The notes beneath the pieces are model-generated. The model was not told the origin of the DNA, did no database searches, and saw only the letters and a program-made list of their open reading frames with translations. The position numbers and the translations under genes were made by a program. From Chthoniobacterales bacterium (GTDB taxonomy: Bacteria > Verrucomicrobiota > Verrucomicrobiia > Chthoniobacterales > UBA10450), in the NCBI GenBank assembly GCA_035536995.1, contig DATLNB010000047.1:1047-65046 (forward strand): a stretch of DNA of 64,000 nucleotides, given 5' to 3'. Below are positions 2 through 31,947 of the stretch, piece by piece; positions within the stretch are counted from its first letter, which is position 1, and the number at the start of each line of letters is the position of its first letter.

Positions 2-3000
2 ACGGAAGGCCGGCTCGGAGGCCAGGCGGTGGTGAAAGGCGTTGCGGGCACTTGGAAAGACCTCACTGACTCGGTGAATTTCATGGCCGGTAACCTGACC
101 AACCAGGTGCGTGGTATCGCGAAAGTCGTCACGGCGGTCGCGAACGGCGACCTGAAACAGAAGCTCCTGGTCGAAGCGAAAGGGGAGATCGCCGCTCTGG
201 CCGACACGATCAACGGCATGACTGATACGCTCGCCATTTTTGCCGATCAGGTGACGAGCGTGGCGCGCGAAGTGGGCGTGGAAGGAAAACTCGGCGGCCA
301 GGCCAACGTGCCGGGCGCGGCGGGAACCTGGCGCGACCTCACGGACAACGTGAACCAGCTCGCCGGCAATCTTACTTCACAGCTCCGCGCGATCGCGGAC
401 GTCGCGACCGCGGTGACCAAGGGAGACCTGACCCGATCGATCCAGGTCGATGCCCAGGGGGAAGTCGCGTTCGTGAAGGACAACATCAACGAAATGATCC
501 GCAACTTGAAGGACACGACGTTGCGGAACGACGAGCAGGACTGGTTGAAGACGAACCTGGCGAAGTTCACCCGGATGCTGCAGGGCCAGCGCGATCTCTT
601 GACCGTCGGGCGGCTGATCCTGTCAGAGCTGGCACCCGTCGTCTCGGCGCAACAGGGTGTGTTCTACATGATGGACGGTTCGGCCGACGAACCCGAGCTG
701 CGGCTCCTGGCGAGCTATGCTTATCGGGAACGCAAAGGCGTGAACACGCGCTTCAAGCTCGGTGAGGGTTTGGTCGGGCAGGCCGCGCTGGAGAAGGAAC
801 GAATTCTCCTCTCCAAGGTCCCGCCGGATTATATCCAGGTCAGTTCCGGTCTTGGTGAAGCGGCGCCGCGCAACATCGTCGTCCTGCCGATCCTCTTCGA
901 AGGCCAGGTAAAAGCGGTGATGGAATTGTCATCGCTCGAGCAGTTCAATCCCACCCACCACGCGTTTCTCCATCAGCTCACGGAGAGTATCGGAATCGTC
1001 TTGAACACGATCGAGGCGAACACGCGAACGGAGGATCTCCTCAAGCAATCGCAATCCCTGGCATCCGAGCTCCAGAGCCGGCAGGAAGAATTGCAACAGA
1101 CCAACCAGGAGCTGGAGGAAAAAGCGCGGCAGCTCTTCGAGCAAAACGAGGAAGTCGAGCGGAAGAACCGCGAGGTCGAGCAGGCCCGACAGGCGCTCGA
1201 AGGCAAGGCGCAGCAGCTTTCGATCACTTCGCGCTACAAGAGCGAGTTCCTCGCGAACATGTCCCACGAGTTGCGGACGCCGCTCAACAGCCTCCTCATT
1301 CTCGCCGACCAGCTCTCGTCCAATCCGGAGGGGAACCTGACGCCCAAGCAGGTGGAATTCGCGCGCACGATCCGAGGTTCCGGCAAGGATTTGCTCCGCC
1401 TGATCAACGACATTCTCGACCTCTCGAAAATCGAGTCCGGCACGGTCACGCTCGACGTCGGCGAAGTTCGATTCGAAGAAATGCGCCAGACAATGGAGCG
1501 AACCTTCCGGCATGTGGCGGAAGGGAAGGGGGTCACGTTCAAGATCGACATCGATCCGCGAGTACCGGCCGGGGTCCAAACCGATTCGCAACGACTCGAT
1601 CAGGTCTTGAAGAACCTGCTCTCGAATGCCTTCAAGTTTACCGAGCGCGGTTACGTCAATTTGCGGGTGGCGCCCGCGGCGGCCGGCTGGTCGTCTGACA
1701 ATCACAGTCTGAACCGAGCCGACAACGTCCTTGCGTTTGCCGTGAGCGACAGCGGCATCGGCATTCCGCCGGATAAACAAACGACGATTTTCGAAGCGTT
1801 CCAGCAGGCCGATGGCAGCACGAGCCGGAAGTACGGCGGAACGGGTCTCGGCCTGGCCATTAGCCGTGAGCTCGCGCGGGTCCTGGGCGGGGAAATCCGG
1901 GTCGAGAGCTCCGAAGGTCGCGGGAGCACCTTCACGCTCTTTCTGCCGCAGGATTATGCGGCGTCACCGACGGAGCGGGCCGCAGCCCGGGTCTTGTCAC
2001 AATCGACTGGGGCGCAAACAGCAGCGACGCCGCCGCCTCGGCCGCCGGCAGTCGAGTTCACCCTGGCGGATGACCGGTCCAATATCCTGCCTGGTGAGAA
2101 ATCGGTGCTGATTGTCGAAGACGACGGCGATTTCGCGCAGTGGCTGCTCGACCTTGCCCACCAGAATGGGTTCAAGGCCGTGGTTACGCCCCGTGGCAAG
2201 GCGGCGCTCGATTTAGTCCGCGAATTTCTCCCTGCGGCGATCACGCTCGATCTGAGTCTGCCGGACATGGATGGCTGGCACATTCTCAATCATCTCAAAT
2301 CCGATCTCACGACGCGTCATATCCCGGTGTTCGTGATTTCCGCCAGGGACGAGCCCCAAAACGCGTTGCGGCTCGGCGCCATGCGGTTCCTGACCAAGCC
2401 AATTGATGAGATGCAAATCCGGCAGGTGTTTGAAAAAGCCAACCAGATGGACCAAACGAAGGCGAAGAAGCTTCTCGTGGTTGAAGATGATGAAATCCAG
2501 CGGCACAGCATCAGAGACCTGGTTGGTAACGGAACCGCAGTGGTGGTGGAGGCCCAGGATGGCGGAACAGCTCTCGACCGTTTGCGGAACGAGCCGGTCG
2601 ATTGCGTGGTCCTCGATCTCATGCTTCCCGACATGTCGGGCTTTGAGTTGATCGAAAAAATCCGGGAAGAGCACCAGGATCTTCCGATCATTGTTTACAC
2701 GGCCCGCGACCTGACCCAGGAGGAGGAAGAAAAGCTGAATCGGATCGCGCAAACGACAATCGTGAAAACGGTGCGCAGTCCGGAACGGCTGTTCGATCAG
2801 ACAGCGCTCTGGCTGCACCGGGACGCGGCATTGTTACCGCCCGACAAACGCGAGCTGCTCCGGCGTTTGAACGATCCCAACGAAATACTCGCCACCAAGA
2901 AGGTGGTGATCGTTGACGATGATATTCGAAACATCTTCGCCATGACGAGCATGCTCGAGCGCTACAAGATGGATGTGCACTCGGCAGAGACGGGCAAGGC

Positions 3001-3262
3001 CGCGCTGGAGCTGCTCCAGTCGGAACCGAACATCGATCTCGTCCTGATGGACATCATGCTCCCGGAGATGGATGGCTACGAAACCATCCGCGCCATTCGG
3101 AAGATGTATGGATTCGAGGAGCTGCCCATCATCGCCTTGACTGCGAAAGCGATGAAAGGCGATCGCGAAAAATGCATCGATGCCGGCGCGAGCGATTACA
3201 TTTCCAAGCCGGTCGATACCGACCGCCTGCTGACCCTGCTTCGCAACTGGCTCCATCGGTAG
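2..3262 (+). CDS. Hybrid sensor histidine kinase, 5'-truncated by the window edge: tandem HAMP repeats - GAF - coiled coil - HisKA/HATPase - three receiver domains
   Basis: The frame is open from nt 2 ([23 protein letters not shown]), so the listed GTG at 29 is internal. A HAMP-type ~92-aa repeat is seen twice ([25 protein letters not shown] / [25 protein letters not shown]). H-box SHELRTPLN; G-boxes DSGIGIP and [10 protein letters not shown]. Three REC modules ([24 protein letters not shown]). Confidence 0.9.
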
Positions 3263-3265
3263 CTC

Positions 3266-5431
3266 ATGGCTGAGAATCCCAGCACGAAGGAGCCGGCCGA
3301 GGAAAAGGTCTGTATCCTGATCGTTGACGATCGGCAGGACAAGATGCTGGCCTACGAGGCGATCCTCGGCGACCTGCAAGAGAATATTGTCTGCGCTCGC
3401 TCGGGTAAGGAAGCGTTACGATGTCTTCTTAAGCAGGACTTTGCCGTCATTCTCCTCGACGTGAACATGCCGGTGATGGACGGGTTCGAAACCGCATCCC
3501 TCATTCGGCAGCGAGCGCGCTCCCAAACCACGCCGATCATTTTTATCAGCGCGGTTAACGATACCGAAACCCACGTCTCGCGCGGCTATTCGCTCGGGGC
3601 GGTCGATTACATCCTGACTCCCGTCGTCCCGGAAATCCTCCGCGCCAAGATTGCGGTATTCGTGGACCTGTTCAGAAAGACCGAGCAGGTAAAGCGGCAG
3701 GCCGAAGAACGCGAGAAACTGATCCGAGAACAAGCGGCGCGCGCGGAAGCGGAAGCGCGCCAGGAACGGCTCGCCTTCCTGGCCGATGCGAGCAATGTCC
3801 TGGCGAGCTCGCTGGATTATGATGAAACCCTGAGCAACCTGGCGAGTCTGGTCGTGCCGCGTGTCGCCGATTTTTGTCTCGTTCACGCCACCGAAGAGGA
3901 AGGCGGGATGCGGCAGGTTGCGCTGGCCTATCGCAATCCCACGGATGATCCAGTCCTGCAGAAGCTCATCGCGGAATTTCCTTCGAGCCCGGCCGCACAA
4001 AAGGGCGGAGCGCATGTCGTTAAAACAGGTCGCTCCAGAATGGTTTGCGACGTTTGCAACGGCGAGCTCCGGGAAGTTTTCGAGGAGAAAGCAGATCGGG
4101 ACTTCATCCGCTCGTTCGCGGCGAAATCATTTATCGCGGTCCCGCTTCGAGCGCAGGAGCGCATTCTCGGGGCTATCGTCATGATCAATACCGGCACGGG
4201 CCGGGATTGCGGGACCGAGGAGTTGTCCTTGGCGGAAGAGCTGGCCCATCGCGCCGCGCTCGCCCTGGAGAACGCGCGCCTTTACAAATCCGCTCAGAAG
4301 GCTCGGGCCGAGTCCGAACGGGCCAACCGGGCGAAGGATTCCTTCCTGGCCATGCTCAGCCATGAGCTGCGAACCCCGCTCACGCCCGTGCTCACTTCGG
4401 TGCTCCAGCTCGAACAGGCGCAAAATCTGCCGGACGAAATTCGCGGCGCCCTGCAAATGATCCGCCGAAACGTGGAACTGGAGGCCCGCCTCATCGATGA
4501 CCTGCTCGACCTGACCCGGATCAGCAAGGGCAAGGTCCAGCTCAGCATCGAGGAAGTGAATGCGCATACCCTCCTTCAAAACGCGCTCGAGATTTGCCAG
4601 GCGGATATTGAAAAGAAGCATCTGGCGCTGGGCACGGAGTTCATGGCCGAAAAAGTTTCACTCGAAGCCGACCCAGCTCGGCTCCAGCAGATTTTTTGGA
4701 ACCTGATCAAGAACGCGGTGAAGTTCACGCCGGAAGGCGGCCAGCTCAAGGTCCGGACTCAGAATCTGGACGGCCAACTGCAGGTGGAAGTTTCCGACAA
4801 CGGTATCGGCATTGACGCCGAAACGTTGCCGAAGATTTTCAATGCCTTCGAGCAGGGTGAGCGCGGGCAGCTGGGAGGCCTTGGTCTGGGCCTCGCGATC
4901 AGCAAAGCCCTCGTAGAAACCCACAGCGGGAAACTGACTGCGGCCAGTGACGGACCGGACAAAGGCGCGACGTTCACGGCAACATTCCCGATGGTGAACG
5001 CTTTGACTGAGTCGCGCGGCCGCGCTGTGGCCCCGCCTGCCGGCGAACGAAAGGCGCTGCGGGTTTTGCTGGTCGAAGACCATGAAGACACGAACCGGTC
5101 GCTGACCCAATTATTGCGCCGGCGCGGGTATCACGTTCAACCTGCCCATTCGGTTCAATCGGCTGTTGAAGCGGCCGCGCAGGGGGCCTTTGACGTTCTC
5201 GTCAGCGACATCGGTTTACCCGACGGGAGTGGGATTGACCTCATGCAAAAGATCAATCCGGAGCATCGCCTGTTCGGTATTGCTCTCACCGGATTTGGAA
5301 TGGAAGACGATGTCCGGCGCAGCCAGGCGGTCGGCTTCCATCATCACCTGGTGAAACCGGTCGATTTGAATCGGCTCGATGCCCTGATCCAGGAGGCTCA
5401 GCCAATTGTCGAACCAGCCGTGGCTGATTAA
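3266..5431 (+). CDS. Hybrid histidine kinase: receiver - GAF - HisKA/HATPase - receiver
   Basis: N-terminal REC (ILLDVNMPVMDG); central GAF-like region; H-box [10 protein letters not shown]; NLIKNAVKFT, DNGIGID, GLGLGLAISK; C-terminal REC (VLVSDIGLPDGSG). Starts 4 nt after the upstream kinase stop. Confidence 0.9.
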   Translation: MAENPSTKEPAEEKVCILIVDDRQDKMLAYEAILGDLQENIVCARSGKEALRCLLKQDFAVILLDVNMPVMDGFETASLIRQRARSQTTPIIFISAVNDTETHVSRGYSLGAVDYILTPVVPEILRAKIAVFVDLFRKTEQVKRQAEEREKLIREQAARAEAEARQERLAFLADASNVLASSLDYDETLSNLASLVVPRVADFCLVHATEEEGGMRQVALAYRNPTDDPVLQKLIAEFPSSPAAQKGGAHVVKTGRSRMVCDVCNGELREVFEEKADRDFIRSFAAKSFIAVPLRAQERILGAIVMINTGTGRDCGTEELSLAEELAHRAALALENARLYKSAQKARAESERANRAKDSFLAMLSHELRTPLTPVLTSVLQLEQAQNLPDEIRGALQMIRRNVELEARLIDDLLDLTRISKGKVQLSIEEVNAHTLLQNALEICQADIEKKHLALGTEFMAEKVSLEADPARLQQIFWNLIKNAVKFTPEGGQLKVRTQNLDGQLQVEVSDNGIGIDAETLPKIFNAFEQGERGQLGGLGLGLAISKALVETHSGKLTAASDGPDKGATFTATFPMVNALTESRGRAVAPPAGERKALRVLLVEDHEDTNRSLTQLLRRRGYHVQPAHSVQSAVEAAAQGAFDVLVSDIGLPDGSGIDLMQKINPEHRLFGIALTGFGMEDDVRRSQAVGFHHHLVKPVDLNRLDALIQEAQPIVEPAVAD

Positions 5432-5475
5432 ACGTCGCGGTCTCAAGGCCAGCCGCGCGATTTCTGATATTCTGC

Positions 5476-6189
5476 GTGCAATTGAGGCGCGTTTTCGCGT
5501 TTATTCTCGGCGCTGTGCGAATCCAACGGACTGCATTCTTGTTTTTGGCACTGGGGGCGACGACGACGCTCGTCCCCGCGGCGGATACATTTAACGAGGA
5601 GAAACCGCACGCGCGATTTTGCCTCTCCCTTTTCGATCCAGGTCCGCCCGAAAAAGAGGAGGCGTTCCAGATCACCGCGGCCGCAGGTCCGGGGAAAGTC
5701 GTCCGCGCCTACGTCGATGCGAGTGAGACGTGCACAGTGCTTCTGGCCGCGATGACGCGGGACGGAAAGCTCGCGAATGGCTGGCGGCCACAGCTGGCCG
5801 AGGTGCCGGCAGAGTTTGAAGAAATTCTGTTGCCGAAAGCGCCGGTGAAGTGGGACTGGACAAGCTCGAGCAGTCCTTTTGACGTCTACGTGCTGGTCCT
5901 GGCTCCGGGCAGCAAGGAGACCGAGGAGGCGAAGAAGCTGGTGGACGCGATGCAGAACCCCAAGGTGGACGACCGTGTGCTCGCGCTTCAGACCGGGAAG
6001 CTCAAGGAATTGATCGGCCGGCTGGCTGGTGACCGGGGGAAAAACGCTGGACCGGCGGCCGAACCCGAAGTCGGCGGAGTATTCCGCGGGGCCGCTTTCC
6101 CGTGGCGACAGTTTGCGCAGGGCGTGAACTTTTCGCCCGATCGTCCGGGAGTCCTGATCGTTTCCACCGACAAGGCTGATAAAAAATGA
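5476..6189 (+). CDS. Secreted hypothetical protein (tentatively DUF4384-like), first gene of the CHASE2/CHAT operon
   Basis: GTG start; signal-like hydrophobic N-terminus (AFLFLALGATTTLVPAAD). Its stop overlaps the next start (ATGA at 6186-6189). The family assignment is from memory and tentative. Confidence 0.55.
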   Translation: MQLRRVFAFILGAVRIQRTAFLFLALGATTTLVPAADTFNEEKPHARFCLSLFDPGPPEKEEAFQITAAAGPGKVVRAYVDASETCTVLLAAMTRDGKLANGWRPQLAEVPAEFEEILLPKAPVKWDWTSSSSPFDVYVLVLAPGSKETEEAKKLVDAMQNPKVDDRVLALQTGKLKELIGRLAGDRGKNAGPAAEPEVGGVFRGAAFPWRQFAQGVNFSPDRPGVLIVSTDKADKK

Positions 6190-8294
6190 TGGCCGGCAGT
6201 TCGCCCGGCCCGAATTCCGTCCGCGAACAAATCTGGCTGCGCTCGCCGTGGCCTCTGCTCGTGGTGATCTGCGCGGCAGCCGCTCTCTGGACGGCGGTCG
6301 CGGGGAATCCGTTCGAGAGCGTGGAGATGCGGTGGTTCGGGCAGGTCCTGCGGTGGCGCTACGAGCGCGGCCTCGCGCCGCCGGCTGACCCAGGCCTTGT
6401 CCACGTCGACATTACGCAGGCCGATCTGCGCAAGGTGCCGACCCTGGAATTAGAATATCAGAACGCGGCAAACATTATCCGGCAGGCGTTCGAGCTCGGG
6501 GCAAAGGTCGTTGCTTTCGACGTCGTTTTCGGACGGGGCAACGAAGCAATGGCGGGCCCGATTCTAAAAGAAATTGAAGCGAGTAAAACGCAAAGCCGCT
6601 CTGTTATTCTCGCGGAAGCGCTTTTGCCGGGCCCTGAGAGCGGAGAAGAACGGGTCCGCTCGTTCCCCTTTCGAGAACGGGTTGTGCCGGCCGGCCTCAT
6701 CAACGTTCGCGCGGATGGCGATGGTGTGCTGCGACGTTACGATTATGTGCATCGCAACGGTGCCGGCGAAACCGAGCCGTCGCTTGCCCTGGCCTGTTAC
6801 CTTGCATGGCGCGATATCGCGTGGCCCGGCGGCGTGACATTCCCGGCGCAGGGCGTCGCTCGCTGGGAAGAACTGTCGAGTGATTTTACAAGTGTCGAGC
6901 CACGAGAGCTCAAGCTCGAGACCGTGTTATTGAACTACCGGAGCCCATGGACCGGTCAGGGACCTGCGGCCTTTCGGCACTATAACGTGGCTCAGCTTGA
7001 AGCTCTGCATGCGACTAGCCGGGCGAACGGGACCCAGCCCCTCACTAATGCGATTGTCATTGTGTCTTACTACGGCGCTGGGCTCGGCGACATGGGGACC
7101 ACTTCGATCGCTCCGAATCAACCTCGCGTGGTGCTTCATTCCACCGCGCTAAACGATTTGATCCAGCGCTCCTGGCTAAAGCGAACGCCGCGCTGGCTGG
7201 ATGCGCTCGCCATTATCGGACTGATCATGCTTGGGGCGGTGGCGGCCTTTATTCGCGGGACGGTTCCTCTGCTCTTGTTCTGGTTCGCCGGCGTTGCGGT
7301 GTGCTGCGGGCTCAGCATTTGGTTCATTTTGAAAACGGGCTGGGTACCTGGGCTGATGAGCACGGGCATCATCTGGAGCCTGTTGACCTTCGTGGAGCTG
7401 GGCCGAAGGCAAAGCCACGAGTTCATCCAGCGGCTCAAGCTTCGGTCGACGATGAGCCTCTATTTTTCCCCCCACATCATGGAGCAGGTCCTGAAGAACC
7501 CGGGCTCGATGGAACCGCAGCAGGCTGAGATCACCGTTCTCCTGACCGATTTGCGCAACTCGACCCCGATCGCGGAGCTGCTCGGTCCTCCCGGTATGTT
7601 CCGCCTGCTCAATCAGGTGTTCGAGACCCAGACGCAGGCCATCCTTGCGGAAGACGGCAGCATGGAACATTTCCTTGGCGACCAATTCCTGAGTTATTGG
7701 GGTGCGCCGCAGGCACAGGTCGACGCGGCCGACCGCGCTTACCGTGCGGCTCTGAGTCTGATTTCAGGGATGGAAGCCCTGCAGGGCAATCTTGAGCCAA
7801 ATCTGAAGGCTTTGTTCGGATATGGGGTTGCCTTGCATAGCGGAAGCGCGCTTATCGGGAACAAAGGATCGGCGCAGCGTCTGGACTACGGTTTGGTCGG
7901 CGACCTGATCAACGCGGCCGCGCGCGTGGAGTCGCTCACGAAATACTACGGCGTTCTTTTCCTGATGACGCGCGAAGCGTTTACCCGGCTTTCCCAACCG
8001 CCTTCCTTTCGCGTCATCGACAGAGCAGTGGTGAAGGGAACGTCCCAGCCGCTCGAGTTGATCGAGGTGAAGCATCCCTTCAGTCCCGCGAAGTTCGACG
8101 ACATTGCCGACCGGTACCGGAATGCTTTTGCCGAATACGAGCGCGGCGATTTTGAACAGGCCCAGCGTCTGTTCTCGGACCTGGCTGAGGAAGAACGAGA
8201 CAAACCGAGCGCACTTATGGCAGAACGATGCCGGGAGCTGGCAGAAACGCGGCCATCCGACTGGCGCGGCGTTTATCACCTGACAGCCAAGTAG
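6186..8294 (+). CDS. CHASE2 sensor domain - class III adenylate/guanylate cyclase
   Basis: N-terminal TM, a ~300-aa periplasmic region, then a 3-TM block (LDALAIIGLIMLGAVAAF...GIIWSLLTFV). Cyclase motifs follow: VLLTDLRNST, FLGDQFLSYWGAP, GVALHSGSALIGNKGS, GDLINAAARVES. Confidence 0.85.
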   Translation: MMAGSSPGPNSVREQIWLRSPWPLLVVICAAAALWTAVAGNPFESVEMRWFGQVLRWRYERGLAPPADPGLVHVDITQADLRKVPTLELEYQNAANIIRQAFELGAKVVAFDVVFGRGNEAMAGPILKEIEASKTQSRSVILAEALLPGPESGEERVRSFPFRERVVPAGLINVRADGDGVLRRYDYVHRNGAGETEPSLALACYLAWRDIAWPGGVTFPAQGVARWEELSSDFTSVEPRELKLETVLLNYRSPWTGQGPAAFRHYNVAQLEALHATSRANGTQPLTNAIVIVSYYGAGLGDMGTTSIAPNQPRVVLHSTALNDLIQRSWLKRTPRWLDALAIIGLIMLGAVAAFIRGTVPLLLFWFAGVAVCCGLSIWFILKTGWVPGLMSTGIIWSLLTFVELGRRQSHEFIQRLKLRSTMSLYFSPHIMEQVLKNPGSMEPQQAEITVLLTDLRNSTPIAELLGPPGMFRLLNQVFETQTQAILAEDGSMEHFLGDQFLSYWGAPQAQVDAADRAYRAALSLISGMEALQGNLEPNLKALFGYGVALHSGSALIGNKGSAQRLDYGLVGDLINAAARVESLTKYYGVLFLMTREAFTRLSQPPSFRVIDRAVVKGTSQPLELIEVKHPFSPAKFDDIADRYRNAFAEYERGDFEQAQRLFSDLAEEERDKPSALMAERCRELAETRPSDWRGVYHLTAK

Positions 8295-23077: not shown

Positions 23078-23174
23078 GCGGTAAATAACCGGGCCGCAGA
23101 AGAGGCTCCGCCATTTTTAGCTTGAGTGCCCGGGCGGGAGCAATCACGCTGAAAACGTGAGAGCTACGTCCGTC

Positions 23175-23930
23175 ATGGAGAGCCCGACGCCTCTGACCCA
23201 CTTTGCCACCACGCGCTGGAGCCTGATTCGGCAACGCTATCTTCCCGGGGAAAATCGCAGCAAAATCGACCCGGGCCTCGCGCAGCTTTGCCAGATTTAT
23301 TGGCGCCCAATTTTCACTTTCATCTACCGGCGGGGATACTCGGCTCCCGATGCGCAGGACCTGACGCAGGATTTTTTTCTGATGCTGCTGGAAGGCAAGC
23401 TCCTGGAAATGGCTGATCCAGAACGGGGCCGTTTCCGTTCCCTCCTTTTGCGATCGCTAAAAAACTTTTTGATCGACGCAGCGGTGAAGCGACGCCGGCA
23501 CAAGCGCGGAGGGCAGGTCCAGTTTGTTTCGTGGGAGAAATGGATGGCCGATGCCCCGCCTCAGTTGTCACTGCCGTCCAGCGCGGTGGAATCGTCGCCG
23601 CCGGAAGCGCTGTTTGACGCCGGTTGGGCGGCGGCCATCGCAGAAGAAGCGTTGCGCCGACTCCGCTTGGAATGCGAAAGCAAGGGCCGGCGCCGGGTTT
23701 ACGAAGTCCTGCATACCTACCTTACGGCTGAGCGGACTGAGACCTGTTATGAAGGACTGTCGCGGGCTCTCGGAGTTCCCGAAGCTTCAGTCAAGAGTCT
23801 GCTTCACCATTTCCGGACGCGCTATCGCACGCTTCTTCGCGAGGAGATCGCCAAGACCGTCGAGTCGGAGGCGAACGTAGACGAAGAAATCCGTTATCTT
23901 TGCGCCACCCTCAGCGCCGCCGCCGGGTAG
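23175..23930 (+). CDS. ECF sigma factor, ECF43-like (Ser/Thr-kinase-associated type)
   Basis: N-terminal ATTRWSLI motif; region 2 (DAQDLTQDFFLMLL); region 4-like C-terminus. Immediately followed by a Ser/Thr kinase gene, with no anti-sigma gene. An alternative GTG start lies at 23157. Confidence 0.8.
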   Translation: MESPTPLTHFATTRWSLIRQRYLPGENRSKIDPGLAQLCQIYWRPIFTFIYRRGYSAPDAQDLTQDFFLMLLEGKLLEMADPERGRFRSLLLRSLKNFLIDAAVKRRRHKRGGQVQFVSWEKWMADAPPQLSLPSSAVESSPPEALFDAGWAAAIAEEALRRLRLECESKGRRRVYEVLHTYLTAERTETCYEGLSRALGVPEASVKSLLHHFRTRYRTLLREEIAKTVESEANVDEEIRYLCATLSAAAG

Positions 23931-23936
23931 GCGCTC

Positions 23937-26678
23937 ATGCCACGGGGACCCTCCAGCGATTCGTCTTTTTCCGTAACCGTAGAGCCGCAGATTTGCTCGC
24001 GGTGCCATACCGTTTCACGACTGACTAACGGCCTTTGCCTCAACTGCCTCCTGCGCGGCGCGCTGAGTGAGGAAACTGCCCCGGCCGGCAAGGAGGCCTT
24101 CAAGGAAGTACTCTCCGCGGTCCAGTCGCGGGACGGGGATTGGCACATCGCCGATCACGAGATCCTGCACGAGATCGCGCGAGGCGGGATGGGGGTCGTT
24201 TACCAGGCGCAAGAACCTCATTCCGGCCGAATCGTCGCGCTAAAGTGCGTTCTCGCCTTTCACGACGATTCAGACCATCTCCTGGCGCGATTCCGGCGGG
24301 AGGCGGAAACGGCCGCCCGGCTGGATCATCCGAACATCGTCCCGATTTATCAGATCGGGGAGACGGCTGACGGGTTCCCGTATTACACGATGAAGTACGC
24401 GCCCGGCGGGAGTCTGCTTGGGGCGCGCGGTCCTCTTCGCCAGCACCCGCGGGAAAGTGTCGAGCTCATGGCGAAAGTCGCGCGGGCCGTCCACTACGCG
24501 CATGAGCACGGGGTTCTCCACCGGGACCTAAAACCCGGCAATATTCTCCTGGATAATCAGGGGCAACCGATGGTGAGCGATTTCGGCTTGGCCAGATGTG
24601 AAACCGTCTCCGGTGATCTCACCCGGTCGCTGAGCAGCTTCGGCACGCCTGGCTATATCGCCCCCGAACAGGCTGACGGTCCCGCGGCCAACCTCACCCC
24701 AGCCGCCGATATTTACAGCCTCGGTGCCATCTTGTTTGAGCTCCTGACCGGCCGGACGCCATTCGTCGGCGATAACGCGTTTGCGGTAATGAAGCAATCG
24801 GCTGACGAGCCCGCGCCGAAGGTGCGATCCCTGGCGCCGCGGGTCCATCGCGATCTGGAGAAAATATGCGAACGGTGCCTGGAGCGGGAGCCGCGCGATC
24901 GATATCAGTCCGCTGCGGCCCTCGGGCACGATCTGGAGCAGTGGCTGGCGGGGGAACCGATCAGCGCCACGATCGTCCCTCCATGGAGGCGCGTAGCGCG
25001 ATGGGCGGGCCGGCACCAGAAACTTGCGGCCGCGTTATCCGTAGTTGCTCTCATGGCGGCAATAGCAATCGGGTGGCAGGTCTACAGTGCACGCCTCCGC
25101 TCCATGATGCACGAAACTGTCGTTGCTTCACGGTCGACTGTTGTCCTGCCGTTTTTCGACATCGATCGGGTCGGCCGGGACGACGCGGTAGCCCGGTTGG
25201 TGGGAGCTCAGCTCAAAGAGCGCCTGGTTGCTCTGGGCCCGGCGCAGGTGGAGCTGGCTGATTCAGGTCCGCCGATCAATTGGGCCGCGCCCGACACGAT
25301 CCGCGTGGGCGGGCGGATCGCGAAAGCCCGAACCGTCATAAGCGGCACAATCCGCAACACCGAAAACGGGAAACGGATCTCGCTGCGACTTCGCAATGCG
25401 GCTGATGGGACCCCGCTATTCACCAAAGTATTAGTCCTGGAGACTGCCAACGCGCCCGTGGTGACTGACGACCTCGCCCGCAGCCTCTACGCGCTCATCA
25501 GCGCTTCCGACTGGTCCTCAGTCACCGAAGCAACCGCGGACGCGGTTTGCAACAACCCCGAAGCGAAAGAGCATATTCTGGCCGGGCGCAATTTGCTTAA
25601 CCGCGCTTCAAACACCTCGGACTGCGACGGGGCGATCGATCTGTTCAGGCGGGCCCTGGCGAAAACGCCTAATTCGGTTCTCGGCCATGTCTATTTGTCT
25701 TACGCGGCCGCCGGCCGAACCCACTACAACTCTGATGCGAGTTTTCTCACTCTCGCCGAACAGGAAGCGGATCGGGCTCTTACGCTTTCAGCCGAGTCTG
25801 GCGAGGCCCACCGGGCAAAAGCCGCCGTCTATTACCAGCAAGGGCGTTTTTCTGACGCGCTTGAAGAAGAAATAAAATGCATCGAGTTCGGTGGACTCGA
25901 CGAGAAGGTCGCAAACTTCATCGGGCGAACCCTGGATACCCTTGGGCGACCGGAGCTGGCTCTAAAATGGTGCGAAGTTCCGTTGCGGACGCCGCGGACT
26001 CCCGGCGAAGTGGAATGGGTCATCGGCGATTGCTGGATGAAATTAGGTGACGACGGGCGCGCGCTCGAAGCCTATCGGCGTTCCTACGAGCTCCATCCCG
26101 ATATGCCGCACGGGCCGATGGGTATCTCGCACATTTACTTGCTCCAGGCTGACTTTGACAAAGCGCGCGCGGCTTTGCGCCAGCTGGAGAAAGTTCGCGA
26201 CGCCGGCGAATCCGACAAGCTCGCCGCAGAGATAGAATTCTTTGCCCGCGATTTCACGAAAGCCCGCGTGCGTTACGAGGCACTCGCTGCACATGACCCT
26301 GAGGGCGGGGGATTGTTCTGGGGGTCGATTAGCTACAAATCCGCCCTCGCCCGGATACATCAGGAACGCGGCGAGGCTGCCCAGGCAAACGACCTTCTGC
26401 GCCATTGCCTCGCGCGCGAATTTAAGGCGACAGCGCTTGAGCCCGCGAATGCGGAGCCGCTTTATCGTCGCGCAGCCGTCGAAGCGATGCTCGGCATGCC
26501 GGATGCCGCCTTCCAGCACCTGCGCCGCGCCGTCGAGCTGGGCTGGCTTGATTACCGTTCTTTTAGACTGGACCCCCGCTTTGATTCGTTGCGCGCTCGG
26601 CCTGAGTTCGAACAAATCGCTTCTGCCATGTCGAATAATGTCAGGGCAAAAAGGGCTCAGCTACAACCAGCAGACTAA
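23937..26678 (+). CDS. Membrane Ser/Thr protein kinase with N-terminal Cys4 zinc-ribbon-like motif and C-terminal TPR region
   Basis: CSRCH-x11-CLNC; kinase motifs GGMGVVYQA, VALKCV, HRDLKPGNILLD, DFGLAR, GTPGYIAPE; TM segment (LAAALSVVALMAAIAIGW); TPR-like C-terminal ~400 aa. Confidence 0.9.
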   Translation: MPRGPSSDSSFSVTVEPQICSRCHTVSRLTNGLCLNCLLRGALSEETAPAGKEAFKEVLSAVQSRDGDWHIADHEILHEIARGGMGVVYQAQEPHSGRIVALKCVLAFHDDSDHLLARFRREAETAARLDHPNIVPIYQIGETADGFPYYTMKYAPGGSLLGARGPLRQHPRESVELMAKVARAVHYAHEHGVLHRDLKPGNILLDNQGQPMVSDFGLARCETVSGDLTRSLSSFGTPGYIAPEQADGPAANLTPAADIYSLGAILFELLTGRTPFVGDNAFAVMKQSADEPAPKVRSLAPRVHRDLEKICERCLEREPRDRYQSAAALGHDLEQWLAGEPISATIVPPWRRVARWAGRHQKLAAALSVVALMAAIAIGWQVYSARLRSMMHETVVASRSTVVLPFFDIDRVGRDDAVARLVGAQLKERLVALGPAQVELADSGPPINWAAPDTIRVGGRIAKARTVISGTIRNTENGKRISLRLRNAADGTPLFTKVLVLETANAPVVTDDLARSLYALISASDWSSVTEATADAVCNNPEAKEHILAGRNLLNRASNTSDCDGAIDLFRRALAKTPNSVLGHVYLSYAAAGRTHYNSDASFLTLAEQEADRALTLSAESGEAHRAKAAVYYQQGRFSDALEEEIKCIEFGGLDEKVANFIGRTLDTLGRPELALKWCEVPLRTPRTPGEVEWVIGDCWMKLGDDGRALEAYRRSYELHPDMPHGPMGISHIYLLQADFDKARAALRQLEKVRDAGESDKLAAEIEFFARDFTKARVRYEALAAHDPEGGGLFWGSISYKSALARIHQERGEAAQANDLLRHCLAREFKATALEPANAEPLYRRAAVEAMLGMPDAAFQHLRRAVELGWLDYRSFRLDPRFDSLRARPEFEQIASAMSNNVRAKRAQLQPAD

Positions 26679-26690
26679 CGAATAAAAAGT

Positions 26691-27008
26691 ATGAATCTCA
26701 AGAATTGGGACAACATGACAAACGACGAGAAGCTTGATCGCCTTACTTCTGTTCTGACCCGGGCTGGCGCCGACGCCGACTTTCGGGGCCGATGCCTTGC
26801 ATCGGCGGACTCGGCCAAGGCAGCAGTGAGCGAGGTTGGGGAAATCGAATTTCCGCCGGATTTTCGAGTTCAGTTCCTTACTCCGGAGGAGCGTTTGAAA
26901 ACGCTTTTGCTGGCGGTGCCCGACCTAATCCCCACAGAAAACGGGCGGGCTGAGGTTCGCCAGGCCGAGGACTACCAGACCTGTACCTATACGATGTGGC
27001 GGACTTGA
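26691..27008 (+). CDS. Candidate RiPP precursor with NHLP/Nif11-like leader
   Basis: ADADFRGRCLASADSAKAAVSEVGEIEFPPDFRVQFLTPEERLKTLLLAVPDLIP follows the NHLP leader pattern (D..F...LL......A...E.G...P....V.V.E.....L.LVLP). The short C-terminal tail is TENGRAEVRQAEDYQTCTYTMWRT. Starts 12 nt after the kinase stop. Confidence 0.55.
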   Translation: MNLKNWDNMTNDEKLDRLTSVLTRAGADADFRGRCLASADSAKAAVSEVGEIEFPPDFRVQFLTPEERLKTLLLAVPDLIPTENGRAEVRQAEDYQTCTYTMWRT

Positions 27009-27017
27009 GCGAACAGC

Positions 27018-28505
27018 TCAGCGCGAGAGGGCGTTGCGAATAGCTGCGGTTAACTCCGGAACCATTGCCGGCGTCTCGGCCGGCATTGATTCGTCGGTTC
27101 GACGGATGAAGTAGGGGATATCGAGCCTGAGTAGCGATTCGATTTCGGCCTTCTTCACCGCTGAACCCGCGGTCCCTCGTGTGCACAAGCGCTCGACGAG
27201 CTTCCGGCGCGCCGCGGATGAACGAAGCGCGCCGGGCTCGATCGAAGCTTGCCGGATTTCGATGTAGCGGACTGTCGCCCAGTATATCCAGCGGCGCTTC
27301 CGAGAACGGATGCGACGGACGCGCCGGCAGAAACTGGCATTCCGCTGATGGGTGCCCAGGATGCATTTCCACCCAGCCGCAAACCCCTTAACGATTGCCT
27401 CTTTGAAATCCGCCGCCTGCAAGATGGCTCCTTTGACACGGGGTAAGTGAATTCCGCTTTTTGTTTCGGCCAGGACGCTACTGCGCGATTGTAAGCTCCG
27501 CCGGTTTTGGCTCGGAAAGAACCCGGTGCGGAGGAGGACCGTAACTGGCGATTGAGTCTTTGTTACAGCCGAGACGTGCCAGAGCGCATCGAGATCTACG
27601 ACGACCGGTTGTTCACCCGCCGCGATCATGTTCTGGCGATGACAATCGACAGCTTTCAGAAGATAGGCGGCGACAATCGTGCCACCGACCCGCTGATAAA
27701 AGCGGCGGGCGGCGGCGCGGCTCGAGCATTGAGTCGGGGCTATGTCTTCCATCCAGCAATACCCTCTCCTTTGCAGAACCGGCGCCGCGCGCAAGGCCGG
27801 ATGGAAACCGTGGCGGTTCATCCAATTCAAAAGTGAATGCCATTCCGCTTCGCCCTGTCGCCGCCCCGGTTTGTAGATGATCGAACTGTTTTCGAAGATG
27901 ACTCGAACGACACTGCGACCGCAAAAATGTGGATCTGATAATCCGAGCTCCACGTCGTCAATTTTTCCCAGCGGCTTCTGGTCAAAAAACATCTGGGAAA
28001 GCACAGCCCGGTCTCTCGTCGCGCGGCCGATTACTTCCAGGAGGTGATCGCGCCATTGCCGAATTGTTAGCGCCCAAAGCTGCGCGAGGACGGGGTATCT
28101 CCGAAAGAGTGCCTGCAACCTGTGCCAGGGCTCGTGTTGCAAAAACATCTGCTCTCGTTTGGCCGGTGCCATGTCACCACGCCCCAACGCCTGTGTCGCG
28201 AGGCAAAAACTGGCCCATTCCAGGTCAAGGCTCGGCCGGGTAAGCCAGCGTAAACGCCCCCGTAAATCTTGTCTGATCCTTGCCTTCGCTTTTTCTGAGA
28301 CCCACCTTAAGCAACCCGTTCGGGAGTTATTAAGTTCCTGCCATCCGTAACTCACCCCGCTTTCACAGAGCCGTGCCAGTGCTCCTGCTTTCGCCGATGT
28401 GAAGCTGGCTCGCTCCAGGACGGCTAGCATTTTGCGAAGCTCTGGTTTGAAGGCGGCGGGCGCCGCAGTCACGATGGCTTTGATCCCAGGGGAGGAGATA
28501 GCCAT
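27018..28505 (-). CDS. Stand-alone LanM-type dehydratase (kinase/lyase) domain protein, DUF4135-like, no LanC cyclase domain
   Basis: Matches the remembered LanM N-terminal pattern throughout: SDPHFCGRSVVRVIFENSSIIYKPGRR, RRGYCWMEDI, FYQRVGGTIVAAYLLKAVDCHRQNMIAAGEQPVVVDLDALWH, R.IRSRKRRWIYWATVRY, EIESLLRLDIPYF. The protein ends after ~495 aa, so there is no room for a LanC-like domain. Confidence 0.75.
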   Translation of the reverse strand: MAISSPGIKAIVTAAPAAFKPELRKMLAVLERASFTSAKAGALARLCESGVSYGWQELNNSRTGCLRWVSEKAKARIRQDLRGRLRWLTRPSLDLEWASFCLATQALGRGDMAPAKREQMFLQHEPWHRLQALFRRYPVLAQLWALTIRQWRDHLLEVIGRATRDRAVLSQMFFDQKPLGKIDDVELGLSDPHFCGRSVVRVIFENSSIIYKPGRRQGEAEWHSLLNWMNRHGFHPALRAAPVLQRRGYCWMEDIAPTQCSSRAAARRFYQRVGGTIVAAYLLKAVDCHRQNMIAAGEQPVVVDLDALWHVSAVTKTQSPVTVLLRTGFFPSQNRRSLQSRSSVLAETKSGIHLPRVKGAILQAADFKEAIVKGFAAGWKCILGTHQRNASFCRRVRRIRSRKRRWIYWATVRYIEIRQASIEPGALRSSAARRKLVERLCTRGTAGSAVKKAEIESLLRLDIPYFIRRTDESMPAETPAMVPELTAAIRNALSR

Positions 28506-28538: not shown

Positions 28539-30059
28539 CTACTGCAAATGCCGGCTGGGGAATTGGAAGCGCCGCCAATGCGCTTCGCATTCAGGTAACA
28601 GCCTTTCGTCACCGACGAGTTGAACCACGCGAATCAGTGAATCGACCGCCCGACATGACCCGCCCGGGAAAAACCACTGCGGCAAATTCCAGTCTGGCCC
28701 CATGATATTAAGATAGCTGTCCGGGTCGGCTTCAATCGCCCCCTCGATGACGTCCGCAACAATAGAACTACCCACCGGGCCCAAAGTCAGTCCTTCTTCT
28801 CTAAGCTCTGCTTCCTTGAGGATGTAATAGAAAAGGGGCGTGTTATCCTCGAGCCTGTTTCGGCGAAGTACGCTTCCGGATTCATTCGAGGTATCGGTTA
28901 TTAACTCGGCCTCACTGAGACGGTCTTCTGCCTTTATCCTGCCTTGGGCGATAAGAGCATTGGCGGCTTCCTGGCCCGAGACCAGACCTGCCCGGGCCCC
29001 TCGAAGCAAGGTGCGGACAGGAAGGTTGGATGGGTCCGGCGATTCGCGATGGTTAGCGAGACGGATCGTGCCCGGGGCGAGCCCGTGCATCGACTGGCTA
29101 ACCGAAGTATCTATAAAGGAACTTGAAGCCTGGGGACCCGATGTAGGCAGACCATCGAGAAAGGTACCCCATTCAACCAGGTAATCGTCAGGCAGGGGTG
29201 CGGCCGTTTGCCCCATTGCCATAAGCTCATCAATTACCACCCGCTTGTTGCGACAATTCAACCGATAGGCATTGCGCACCATGCTATGCCCGAATCGAAA
29301 CGCCGCGAGAGAGAATTCTATCGGAATCGGAAACTGCGTTCCTGTTTTCTGAATTATCCGGTTCTGTCGGCTATGCCAGACATCATTGCAGACCACCCGC
29401 GGAAGGTAGTCGTGCCGTACAATCCATTGGTAATGCCAGGAGACCAGCCGGCGCGCCTTCGCAAACAGAGTCCCTCCTCCTAAAGTCTCACCGAGCTCCG
29501 CGAGGCCTGGATTTGTTTGTAGTTGTTCTATCGCGACGTTGTGAAATTTGAGGAAGAGGACGTGGAGCTGGCGGAGTAACACATTGTCGAGGTTACGGCG
29601 GTCTTCCATGTCGCCGACGAGGAGGCGCCCCGCCTTCAGTGGCAGGTCCCGCTGGTATTCTCCCGGGGCGGTCGCACCGATCTTAAAAGTTTCGGCATCG
29701 GGTTCGCCTTCATACAGGTAAGGTGAAATGGCCGGCCCGCCCCCATAAACGTGGTCGAGATCCAGGGTCGGCGTCCTGAAGTTTGGTGTTTCCTCCGGTT
29801 CAGTATAAGGACCTGCCAGCGGCGTGGGGTCATGGGTGAGATCATGACCGACAAATTGCCCAAAGTAGGTGTAGCCGATGCGCGGCGTCAGGGTGCCCTC
29901 GCGCTCGACCTTATACCTCATCGAGTTTCCCAGGGTGATAAGCTTCCTTTCGTGGTCCCTCGTGACAGGGTGAGCCGGCCTGCCAAGGAGGCGCGTATAA
30001 TACCCCCTGGGCTCTGCCTTAGCAGGACGCGCGTGACTGCACATCCCTCGTGAATCCAT
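28539..30059 (-). CDS. Animal-type heme peroxidase family protein (peroxidase-cyclooxygenase superfamily)
   Basis: Distal-His motif YFGQFVGHDLTHD; proximal-His motif AAFRFGHSMV; HVLFLKFHN. No obvious signal peptide. Starts 5 nt downstream of the DUF885 gene stop, and 33 nt separate its stop from the DUF4135 gene start. Confidence 0.8.
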   Translation of the reverse strand: MDSRGMCSHARPAKAEPRGYYTRLLGRPAHPVTRDHERKLITLGNSMRYKVEREGTLTPRIGYTYFGQFVGHDLTHDPTPLAGPYTEPEETPNFRTPTLDLDHVYGGGPAISPYLYEGEPDAETFKIGATAPGEYQRDLPLKAGRLLVGDMEDRRNLDNVLLRQLHVLFLKFHNVAIEQLQTNPGLAELGETLGGGTLFAKARRLVSWHYQWIVRHDYLPRVVCNDVWHSRQNRIIQKTGTQFPIPIEFSLAAFRFGHSMVRNAYRLNCRNKRVVIDELMAMGQTAAPLPDDYLVEWGTFLDGLPTSGPQASSSFIDTSVSQSMHGLAPGTIRLANHRESPDPSNLPVRTLLRGARAGLVSGQEAANALIAQGRIKAEDRLSEAELITDTSNESGSVLRRNRLEDNTPLFYYILKEAELREEGLTLGPVGSSIVADVIEGAIEADPDSYLNIMGPDWNLPQWFFPGGSCRAVDSLIRVVQLVGDERLLPECEAHWRRFQFPSRHLQ

Positions 30060-30064
30060 GGGAC

Positions 30065-31867
30065 TTATTGCCGCTTCGGAGACGGCGTGCTCCCGGGTGG
30101 CGCCTTCTTCGTTTCAAGCCAGCGATTTACATTTTGTTCGAGCACGTCGAGCGGGACGGCTCCGGAAAGCAGGACGGTATCGTGGAACTCGCGGATATCG
30201 AATCCGTCGCCGATTGCCCGGCGAGCGCGGTCACGAAGCTCTTTCAGCTTGAGCTCACCGATCTTGTAAGCCAGGGCCTGTCCCGGCATTGAGATGTAAC
30301 GGTCGATCTCGTTGACGATGTCGTTCTCGGCCTTGGGGGCATTTTCCATGAAGAAGTCGATCGCGCGCTGGCGTTCCCACTTCATCTGGTGCATGCCGGT
30401 ATCGACCACTAGCCGGACCGCCCGCCACATTTCATAAGTCAGCTGACCGAATTTCGAATACGGATCGTCATAGAGTCCCATGTCCTCGCCGAGTGACTCA
30501 GCATAAAGGCCCCAACCTTCGACATAAGCTGTGAACCCTCCATACCGGCGGAACTTGGGAACATCCCCTAACTCCTGGGCCAGGGCGATCTGGAGATGAT
30601 GGCCCGGCACTGCCTCGTGCAATGACAATGCCATCATCTCCCACTTCGGCCGCGTCTCGGGCTTGTAGAGATTGACGAAGTAATACCCGGAGCGTGAGCC
30701 GTCTGCCGCCGGCTGGTTATAGTAGGCTGTGGTGGTGTCCGGGGCGATCTTATCCGGAATCGGTATCACTCCATAAGGCATCCGCGGCAACGTCTTGAAC
30801 ACCTTTACGAGGTGTGGGTCGATCCGCTTGGCCATGGCCTGATACGCAGCCAGCAATTCCTCCGGCGTCTTGTAAAAGAACTGAGGATCGGTCCGGAGTT
30901 TCGTGAAGAATTCCGGAAGGGTGCCTTTGAAATCGACCTTGCCCATGACGGTCTGCATCTCAGCCTTGATGCGCGCCACTTCACTCAGGCCTTTTTCGTG
31001 GATTTGCTGGGGCGTAAGGTCGGTAGTGGTGTGGCGTTTTGTGAGATGAGAGTAATACTCGGCACCCTCTGGCATTTGCCATACGCCAACCTGCTCGAAC
31101 GCTGCGGGCAGATATTCTTCGACAAAATACTTCTTCAGTTTCTCGAATGAAGGCAGGACACCGGACGCAACCGCCTCCTGCGCGGCTTTTGCCAGCCGAT
31201 CGCGGTCGGCCGCGCTGATTGCTTCCGGGAATTTTCGGAACGGCTTGTAGAACGGGCTATCCTCCGGCTTGGAGACCAGCTGCTTGTCGATTTGCGCCGG
31301 GACCCGGTTCAGAACGATCTTCGGCCAGATGATATGCGCGCGCGCTCCCTCGCGCATCAGGGCGATATTTTGCTCTACCAGAGCGGGAAAGGCGCGCAGC
31401 CTGGCGATCCAATCCTCGAAATCCTTGAGGTTCTCGAAGCGGATCCGATCCGTCAGCTCATCGAGCGTTTGGACGCCGCCACGCTGAGTAATCGGCATCA
31501 GGTAACTGCGAAACTTGAAACCCTCGATGTCGTTTTCGAGGTCCTTCTGGAACAGATCGTAGTTGAGCTGGTTTGCCAACGAGAGCTGGGCGCGATTGAA
31601 TTTCTTTAAACGTGTGAGCGTTTCCCTGGCATGCGCTTCGCGCTTCCGGATCGCGTCCAGGCTCTGATCGCCCCAACGATCATTCCAGCGGCGATCGCCC
31701 ATGAACGATGCCCGGACGGGACTTTGTTCCATCTCGTAATTCCATTCCGCTTCGAAGAAATCGTTGAGGGCCTTATCCTCTCCTTTGTTTTGTGCATGAA
31801 GCATGGACGCGAAGTGCAGGCCCAGAAGGACAACGAGGAGGCGGACCGAAAAGGTAAGTGAGCGCAT
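30065..31867 (-). CDS. Secreted DUF885 family protein (putative metallopeptidase-like)
   Basis: Signal peptide from the ATG at 31865-31867 (MRSLTFSVRLLVVLLGLHFASMLHA). HEAVPGHHLQ motif; N-terminal FFEAEWNYEMEQSPVRASFMGD pattern typical of DUF885. Confidence 0.8.
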   Translation of the reverse strand: MRSLTFSVRLLVVLLGLHFASMLHAQNKGEDKALNDFFEAEWNYEMEQSPVRASFMGDRRWNDRWGDQSLDAIRKREAHARETLTRLKKFNRAQLSLANQLNYDLFQKDLENDIEGFKFRSYLMPITQRGGVQTLDELTDRIRFENLKDFEDWIARLRAFPALVEQNIALMREGARAHIIWPKIVLNRVPAQIDKQLVSKPEDSPFYKPFRKFPEAISAADRDRLAKAAQEAVASGVLPSFEKLKKYFVEEYLPAAFEQVGVWQMPEGAEYYSHLTKRHTTTDLTPQQIHEKGLSEVARIKAEMQTVMGKVDFKGTLPEFFTKLRTDPQFFYKTPEELLAAYQAMAKRIDPHLVKVFKTLPRMPYGVIPIPDKIAPDTTTAYYNQPAADGSRSGYYFVNLYKPETRPKWEMMALSLHEAVPGHHLQIALAQELGDVPKFRRYGGFTAYVEGWGLYAESLGEDMGLYDDPYSKFGQLTYEMWRAVRLVVDTGMHQMKWERQRAIDFFMENAPKAENDIVNEIDRYISMPGQALAYKIGELKLKELRDRARRAIGDGFDIREFHDTVLLSGAVPLDVLEQNVNRWLETKKAPPGSTPSPKRQ

Positions 31868-31947
31868 GATTTTACGTTTGGTTGCAAGCTGGGGCCGCGA
31901 CGCCATTGTCTAGAGACGCTGGAAAAAGAACAATTAAAACTTGCCTT

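Follow-up and report, generated by a model that had tools for sequence, protein, structure and literature searches.

RiPP precursors (RiPP, a peptide made ribosomally and modified post-translationally) that carry an NHLP-type leader have been found together with LanM-type partners, as in the pairs DprM/DprE2 (PMC12537861) and PoyF/PoyA (PMC9505594). The fold of the DprE2 leader, determined by nuclear magnetic resonance (NMR), comprises a three-helix bundle and a short beta-hairpin and is accompanied by a disordered C-terminal tail (PMC12537861). PoyF is a LanM-like enzyme without a cyclase that performs one Thr dehydration on the NHLP precursor PoyA, and EmbM, also LanM-like and cyclase-less, only phosphorylates EmbA, the precursor of phospeptin (PMC9505594). 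Here, a locus of related type is described in a stretch of 64,000 nucleotides from a Chthoniobacterales bacterium (Verrucomicrobiota; GenBank assembly GCA_035536995.1, contig DATLNB010000047.1, positions 1,047 to 65,046 of the forward strand). This whole stretch is called the window, and its first nucleotide is position 1. The element in question is a small protein of 105 amino acids (P0001; open reading frame (ORF) 26691..27008, + strand) that ends in QTCTYTMWRT and is encoded beside a stand-alone DUF4135 protein and an animal-type haem peroxidase. Judged from sequence comparisons, this protein is probably the RiPP-like substrate of a conserved four- to five-gene cassette, a reading to which a probability of about 0.62 is given.

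Aromatic side chains of RiPPs are cross-linked by cytochrome P450 enzymes (biarylitides, cittilins, tryptorubin), by radical S-adenosylmethionine (SAM) enzymes (darobactin, triceptides) and by copper-dependent BURP cyclases; the P450 reactions have reportedly been reviewed. The coupling of Tyr, Trp and Met side chains by haem and peroxide is established chemistry. The window's cassette appears to resemble the cross-linking systems in having two conserved aromatics at a fixed short spacing, variable residues between them and a redox metalloenzyme adjacent. Its enzyme, however, is unrelated to P450, radical SAM and BURP enzymes; it falls in the peroxidase-cyclooxygenase superfamily and would use peroxide rather than O2 and a reductant or SAM. 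On the regulatory side, Hanks-type Ser/Thr kinases are known to activate ECF43-type sigma factors, with PknS-EcfK as the example (PMC13147305; reviewed in PMC8999054). In the literature searched, no relevant paper was found that combines a RiPP, an NHLP protein or a proteusin with an animal-type haem peroxidase. NHLP leaders and PoyF-like dehydratases are of known kinds in RiPP-like systems; the peroxidase as class-defining enzyme and the regulatory context are unprecedented.

The main evidence comes from 58 loci with flanks from the order, which were annotated using profiles built from the window's own proteins. Gene order is the same in essentially all of them, across at least 15 genera: the genes for a sigma factor, a kinase and the small protein run in one direction, and the DUF4135 gene, where present, and the peroxidase gene run toward them. 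The peroxidase gene was found wherever the contig permits, and the DUF4135 gene in about half of the cassettes. When both enzymes are encoded, the tail of the small protein carries the motif C-[T/S]-[Y/W]-x-x-[W/Y] (25/25 loci). When the peroxidase is encoded and DUF4135 is not, C-[T/S] occurs in 0/31 loci and the aromatic-x-x-aromatic pair in 31/31, with CC (12), GT (8), AA (8), GA, AT, GC, CG or GF in the place of C-[T/S]. Two DUF4135 loci without a detectable peroxidase (L058 and L062) keep C-T and have lost the aromatic pair, the small protein of L062 ending in LCTDPTG. The peroxidase is accompanied by the aromatic pair and the dehydratase by the C-T/S pair, and these counts indicate that each enzyme is functionally linked to its own part of the motif. 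A link between the tail and its two neighboring enzymes had been suggested in an earlier note, which was made from the letters of the window alone, and the covariation upholds it.

The same pattern was followed on a tree of 54 peroxidases, on which the presence of DUF4135 changed at least five times (at least four on well-supported branches); C[TS] changed together with DUF4135 in 4/4 independent pairs. Predicted targeting is also matched between small protein and peroxidase: of the small proteins, five (L050, L054, L065, L066 and L069) have Sec-type signal peptides and are paired with peroxidases bearing a twin-arginine signal, and no other cassette peroxidase carries such a signal.

The features of the cassette in the window are as follows.

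23157..23930, + strand: ECF-like (extracytoplasmic function) sigma factor of 257 aa, the first cassette gene, with Sigma70_r2 and TIGR02937 matches
23937..26678, + strand: Hanks-type Ser/Thr kinase of 913 aa (Pkinase E 1.8e-46; several TPR families)
26691..26933, + strand: NHLP-like folded leader domain, residues 1-81 of the small protein (profile-profile comparison, PDB profile match and structural model)
26934..26981, + strand: linker, residues 82-97, TENGRAEVRQAEDYQT (from column entropies)
26982..27005, + strand: core CTYTMWRT, residues 98-105, with the frame C98-[T/S]99-Y100-x-x-W103-R104 (conservation in 120 homologues)
26991..26996, + strand: pair of hypervariable positions within the frame, codons 101-102 (T, M) (entropy and omega)
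27018..28505, - strand: stand-alone DUF4135 protein of 495 aa, a LanM-type kinase/lyase dehydratase by homology and without a cyclase (PF13575 E 4e-73)
28539..30059, - strand: animal-type haem peroxidase of 506 aa, without a signal peptide (PF03098, 61.7 bits)

The tail of the small protein, residues 82-105 (26934-27005), reads TENGRAEVRQAEDYQTCTYTMWRT in the ORF translation and is preceded by LLLAVPDLIP. The translation agrees with the composition given in the earlier note, in which the last ten residues hold four Thr (97, 99, 101 and 105), the only Cys of the tail (C98), Y100, M102 and W103. Such a composition is rare: in a background of 24 ORFs of at least 300 aa in the window, 2 of 14,275 ten-residue windows contain at least eight residues of C/T/S/Y/W/M and none matches C[TS][YW]xx[WY]; this measure was chosen post hoc, and the evolutionary evidence is stronger. 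Column entropies across 120 homologues revealed that R90, A92, E93, D94, C98, Y100, W103 and R104 are invariant, and position 99 is T in 90 and S in 30. No columns of the protein vary more than 101 and 102 (3.36 and 3.31 bits, each with 14 residue types). For C98, Y100 and R104, a codon tree of 26 orthologues at genus level gave 5, 9 and 11 synonymous and 0 non-synonymous changes, and it gave an omega of about 1.0 and 1.07 for codons 101 and 102 as against 0.14 for the rest of the gene. Among sequence pairs with no more than 3-5 differences across the 98 other sites, 52% of sites 101-102 are already different. By these rates the two positions are unconstrained or diversifying; synonymous sites are saturated and positive selection is unsupported. 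Within the linker, G85, E88, R90 and A92-E93-D94 are conserved at genus level.

An exhaustive search of 50% clusters extended the comparison to representatives of 30-45% identity, in which only R32 and C98 are invariant. Such distant relatives keep C-[T/S/C]-[Y/W]-x-x-[W/Y], and the linker is not conserved in them and the C-terminal extensions differ. Some have N-terminal signal peptides, and some consist of two tandem leader-plus-core units. The latter were seen in L054 (9369-10121), L057 (9592-10248) and L086 (7677-8405) and in the proteins P0129, P0130, P0132 and P0135; the two cores of one chain are often unlike each other, for example GCFTKF and GFYFVW. Based on the conservation data, the relevant unit of the tail is C98-T/S99-Y100-x-x-W103(-R104). 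When orthologues were aligned, as the earlier note had proposed, the leader proved conserved and the frame of the tail strictly so, with two hypervariable positions inside it. Several of the chemical details suggested there did not hold. All four Thr had been named as dehydration targets, and only T99 is constrained: T101 is hypervariable, position 105 is S, A or T, and T97 is Thr in 93/120. A Met-derived sulfilimine of the peroxidasin kind was rejected on conservation, M102 being hypervariable (Met in 21/120) and the tail having no Lys or hydroxylysine partner. A Tyr-Tyr link between Y95 and Y100 is unlikely; position 95 is Y in 114 and F in 6 of the 120 homologues, Y95 is not retained in distant homologues, and the conserved pair is Y100/W103.

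The ORF itself is a real gene under selection, with 766 homologues of 105-109 aa, of which the top 120 are 73-80% identical, and a gene-wide omega of ~0.14. Named homologues come from metagenome-assembled genomes of Verrucomicrobiota or Chthoniobacterales. The leader region was compared with a reference set of six NHLP precursors from other Verrucomicrobia, which score 50 bits on TIGR03793, have GG motifs and adjoin a radical SAM gene. The hhalign comparison gave a probability of 97.3% (E 1.9e-11, 72 columns, residues 5-83). The best PDB match of a profile of 40 homologues was the NMR structure of the DprE2 leader (9cjx, E 0.0023). In the AlphaFold2 (AF2) model, whose confidence (pLDDT) averages 84.5 and is at least 89 across residues 1-70, helices are predicted at 11-27, 29-37 and 39-50 together with short strands; the linker (74-63) and the tail, falling from 74 to 59, are of low confidence. 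The signature W...FRxxCL...P...F.V.F....LP is common to the NHLP family. C35 of P0001 aligns with the buried Cys30 of DprE2 and is probably structural, not a site of modification. On these profile comparisons, the small protein has an NHLP-type folded leader homologous to RiPP leaders, and the precursor-like layout that the earlier note had seen, a leader with a C-terminal core, is borne out by this leader homology together with the conservation of the tail.

With PoyA, DprE2 (9CJX) and the precursors of TIGR03793, the small protein shares the long folded leader signature, the C-terminal position of the core and, as for DprE2 and PoyA, a LanM-type partner enzyme. It differs from the proteusins in that a GG site, a C39 exporter and a protease are all missing and the curated NHLP hidden Markov model (HMM) is silent. 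Furthermore, the core is one six-residue frame and not a long peptide rich in Cys, Ser and Thr, the haem peroxidase is the class-defining neighbor, and the gene is embedded in a sigma factor/kinase operon. As the earlier note had stated, there is no GG-type cleavage motif and no C39 exporter nearby: the dipeptide GG is absent from the whole of P0001, no C39 transporter is encoded in the window, and the only Peptidase_C39 match in the genome is weak (26.8 bits) and lies on another contig (C12). The NHLP relatives in L007 and L008 have GG. These two loci, from other Verrucomicrobiota families, each show three tandem GG-motif NHLP precursors with Cys-rich cores beside a radical SAM/SPASM gene (L007, 1417-2396; L008, 726-1806); they supplied the reference set for the leader comparison.

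The DUF4135 protein matches the profiles of LicM2 (6st5, E 2.6e-35) and CylM (5dzt, E 1e-12), and is the product of the only DUF4135 gene in the source genome. Five residues for phosphorylation and four for elimination have been defined in CylM (PMC4550811). The nine aligned residues of the window enzyme, D191, H193, K212, D287, H289, N292, D304, R405 and T411 (CylM D252, H254, K274, D347, H349, N352, D364, R506 and T512), are kept in 25 cassette sequences, with T or S at the last, so the enzyme looks like a catalytically competent dehydratase. It covers positions 7-274 of the 932 of TIGR03897 and scores 259.7 bits against a cut-off of 304. No LANC_like domain was detected in the protein; PF05147 (LanC-like) was not found in the genome either, a weak negative since control genomes were silent too. 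Like PoyF and EmbM, it is a stand-alone DUF4135 protein without a LanC domain, of a kind that modifies one or two Thr residues in RiPP precursors. The phosphorylation and elimination residues are all kept, as expected of a PoyF-like dehydratase; EmbM ends at phosphorylation, whereas the window enzyme keeps R405/T411. It also differs from both in that its candidate target, Thr or Ser, is immediately preceded by a conserved Cys and followed by an aromatic pair, and in that the enzyme is optional. The earlier note had called the Thr residues LanM-type dehydration targets. The term LanM-type fits the dehydratase half and no more; a cyclase is lacking, and with the sole conserved Cys adjacent to the sole conserved Thr/Ser the system is not a lanthipeptide.

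The peroxidase scores well above the PF03098 cut-off of 25 bits. Among 17 cassette peroxidases, Q68, H72, D73, R155 and the R255-F-G-H258 motif (distal Gln/His/Asp/Arg and proximal His) do not vary; residue 158 is E in 9, D in 7 and Q in 1 of these. Profile matches include lactoperoxidase (LPO), eosinophil peroxidase, myeloperoxidase (MPO) and peroxinectin, and the motifs align with those of LPO. The AF2 model (pTM 0.86) was matched by Foldseek, with probability 1.00 and TM-scores of 0.5-0.6, to the cyanobacterial peroxidase 8s6c, LPO, MPO, DdPoxA, DUOX and cyclooxygenase (COX). The enzyme belongs to the peroxidase-cyclooxygenase superfamily, as do peroxidasin, LPO and MPO, and it looks like a competent, predicted haem enzyme. 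KatG, known for its Met-Tyr-Trp adduct, is of a different peroxidase superfamily. Where peroxidasin acts on collagen and KatG on itself, the proposed substrate here is a small dedicated protein from a neighboring gene. A DUF885 gene (30065-31906, - strand) lies 5 nt from the peroxidase gene. It was considered as leader peptidase or cassette member and rejected, as it adjoins the cassette only here and in L048 and elsewhere is 4 kb off or absent.

The regulatory genes are closely packed with the small ORF, with 6 nt between the sigma factor stop and the kinase gene and 12 nt between the kinase stop and the small ORF. The small ORF and the DUF4135 gene are convergent, with 9 nt from stop to stop, and the peroxidase gene follows DUF4135. 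The fold of a small palindrome across both stop codons (27006-27020) is no more favorable than that of shuffled sequence (z = 0.36), and a scan of the locus returned 0 promoters and terminators at chance level. The sigma factor was assigned from its Sigma70_r2 and TIGR02937 matches, with an HMM score of 38.8 bits that is under the cut-off of 42.9, and a homologue is found at the same place in nearly all of the 58 loci. In every locus analysed, the kinase gene immediately precedes the small ORF. The kinase consists of an N-terminal Cys4 motif, the kinase domain, one hydrophobic segment near residue 365 and a TPR-rich C-terminal half, which is predicted to be extracytoplasmic from that single segment. 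Its N-terminus (window 23937-24060, + strand) shows Cys-x2-Cys ... Cys-x2-Cys (CSRCH...CLNC) before the kinase domain. The sensor half varies more than the kinase domain (column agreement 0.51-0.70 and 0.76-0.83), as is usual for sensors. Compared by gene layout only, the pair is like the ECF43/Hanks systems, with a sigma factor gene without an anti-sigma gene and a transmembrane Ser/Thr kinase directly after it; a peptide-modification module as linked input or output of such pairs is undescribed in the papers found.

In a phylum-wide sample of 401 genomes, strong matches were found only in the source organism's own family. Matches were detected in 20/301 genomes of the order and in 76/355 genomes of the family, including 31/39 in the genus, and several genomes have 2-3 copies. 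This protein family is common in uncultured soil Chthoniobacterales, with hundreds of metagenomic variants. The flanks shared between loci are housekeeping synteny only (rpoN-like, argH-like and TatC-like genes). The source genome has a second cassette (L105, contig C75, 240-7749), of CC type and without DUF4135, with the following genes.

240-1022, contig C75: sigma factor
1019-3760, contig C75: kinase
3766-4341, contig C75: small protein of 191 aa, hydrophobic at its N-terminus, whose core ends in MMCCYDPY
4298-5803, contig C75: peroxidase, convergent

An ABC-exporter-like ORF (5947-7749) follows the L105 peroxidase on this contig. Other arrangements were also observed. L092, L103 and L083 each hold two complete cassettes side by side, each with its own kinase and some with their own sigma factor; in L092, one cassette has DUF4135 (core CTYEPY) and the other does not (CCYRIW). 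In L049 (9893-11597), the DUF4135 gene is broken into two ORFs (187 and 366 aa), maybe by a frameshift or an assembly error, and the core is still CSYNLW. In L058 (G600:C187, 6518-9066), a 621-aa DUF4135 protein adjoins a 213-aa NHLP-like protein whose tail carries eight RECTQGGGPP repeats; no peroxidase was seen on this 9.4-kb contig, and the locus looks like a multi-core relative that retains the C-T unit only.

With the small protein taken as a RiPP-like substrate, the following course of events may be proposed. The leader would dock both enzymes. The DUF4135 enzyme would phosphorylate T99 and eliminate the phosphate to give dehydrobutyrine (Dhb) beside Cys98, and the cytoplasmic haem peroxidase would use peroxide to oxidise the Y100/W103 pair. 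The likeliest outcome would be an i,i+3 aromatic cross-link forming a small macrocycle, possibly with involvement of Cys98, in which positions 101-102 would be free inside the ring. The presumably co-transcribed sigma factor/kinase pair would control or sense the product. The occurrence and chemistry of these modifications, what becomes of the leader and what the kinase does are matters that we infer from the patterns described above. The product may stay a small modified protein and may signal with its own kinase, as suggested by the missing protease or exporter, the conserved leader and the invariable sigma factor/kinase context. A wider proposal is advanced tentatively, with the odds rather against it: the peroxidase would be the class-defining enzyme of a new RiPP-like family and, with peroxide, join aromatics three residues apart on an NHLP-type small protein, the optional dehydratase would add a dehydro residue beside Cys, and the cassette's own kinase and sigma factor would read the modified tail, either as their cognate signal or as a redox switch that depends on peroxide, with the two free ring positions setting specificity between paralogous cassettes.

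Several observations weigh against the small protein being a RiPP-like substrate. The lockstep test on the tree is small, with 4 pairs only (sign test p = 0.125), and the pairing of signals has exceptions in L102 and L105, where the small protein is hydrophobic at its N-terminus and the peroxidase has no twin-arginine signal. No NHLP model, including TIGR03793, matched P0001 in Pfam and NCBIfam scans even at E 10, the best curated-family match being Frankia_peptide at an unusable E of 0.14. The sole Foldseek match of the AF2 model, the proteusin precursor 8tb1, is weak (E 7.3, TM 0.42/0.49). An omega of ~1 at positions 101-102 suits unconstrained spacers equally with diversification, and no productive chemistry is known for a Cys next to Dhb. 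No protease or exporter family is conserved in the cassette or flanks of the 58 loci, so the release of a mature peptide is unexplained. Finally, the leader is unusually conserved (mean column identity 76%) and the small gene invariably comes third in the operon of the regulators, with which it is probably co-transcribed; both also fit a regulatory protein.

These last points lead to the alternative in which the sigma factor and kinase have the small protein as their regulatory partner (an adaptor, an anti-sigma-like protein, or a substrate or ligand of the kinase), the peroxidase and DUF4135 enzyme being regulated targets or tuners of the regulator. In addition to the operon position, the conserved and confidently folded leader and the lack of a conserved protease or exporter, this view draws on the duplication of whole cassettes, own sigma factor and kinase included, side by side in L092, L103 and L083, and on the compartment that secreted variants would share with the extracytoplasmic TPR half of the kinase. 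It nevertheless leaves the tracking of C[TS] with DUF4135 and of the aromatic pair with the peroxidase unexplained, as well as the pairing of signal peptides with twin-arginine signals, and the homology of the leader to RiPP leaders and the substrate-like position of the conserved motif in a flexible tail of low model confidence speak for an enzyme substrate. A purely regulatory role is considered unlikely, and it could be combined with a RiPP-like substrate if the modified peptide were itself the signal.

Other alternatives accept that the tail is modified and differ in the chemistry. The peroxidase could halogenate or hydroxylate Tyr/Trp through hypohalous acid, as LPO and MPO do, or oxidise Cys98, without forming a cross-link. 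D73 and the acidic residue 158 are kept where mammalian peroxidases form the ester links to haem on which their ability to oxidise halides depends, and LPO, MPO and the cyanobacterial peroxidase are the closest structures; but the fixed i,i+3 aromatics in all 54 peroxidase-linked loci fit a joining reaction better than independent modification, and cores of the AA and GA types have no Cys to oxidise, which makes this chemistry unlikely. It is very doubtful that the tail serves as a scaffold on which a small molecule or cofactor is built, as with PqqA and pyrroloquinoline quinone (PQQ) or with the pearlins, and from which a cross-linked Tyr/Trp unit would be excised and the residues between discarded. 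Only the aromatics and their neighbors are constrained, the residues between evolving at omega ~1 as discarded spacers would, and distant homologues have variable C-terminal extensions past the motif. However, the cassette and its surroundings have no conserved peptidase or further tailoring gene, R104 does not vary at genus level, the tandem two-domain forms (L054, L057 and L086) look protein-like and not like disposable scaffolds, and the reading is an analogy only, without homology to Pqq or PEARL enzymes. Most improbable is a class II lanthipeptide precursor, in which several Thr would be dehydrated and Cys98 would close a (methyl)lanthionine ring. The intact catalytic residues of DUF4135 and the four Thr and one Cys of the window tail would suit it. 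Against it, the 495-aa protein holds DUF4135 only, without a LanC-like domain (the PF05147 search of the genome being empty, its control likewise silent), only T/S99, next to Cys98, is conserved while the other Thr vary, and about half of the cassettes have no DUF4135 yet keep the peroxidase and the aromatic pair. A canonical lanthipeptide was rejected on this conservation, with no thioether-spaced Cys and Ser/Thr.

If the small protein is indeed such a substrate, enzymes of the peroxidase-cyclooxygenase superfamily would join P450s, radical SAM enzymes and copper-dependent BURP cyclases as aromatic cross-linkers of ribosomal peptides. This would offer new enzymology for the engineering of macrocyclic peptides, based on a tiny core, [C-T/S]-Ar-x-x-Ar (Ar, aromatic residue), with two freely variable positions. 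It would also provide a function for the bacterial 'animal' haem peroxidases, which are mostly without known substrates, and a second natural context for stand-alone LanM dehydratases. In the Chthoniobacterales that carry these cassettes, the constant link to a sigma factor and a Ser/Thr kinase may point to a possible first ligand or output for a widespread and poorly understood type of signalling.

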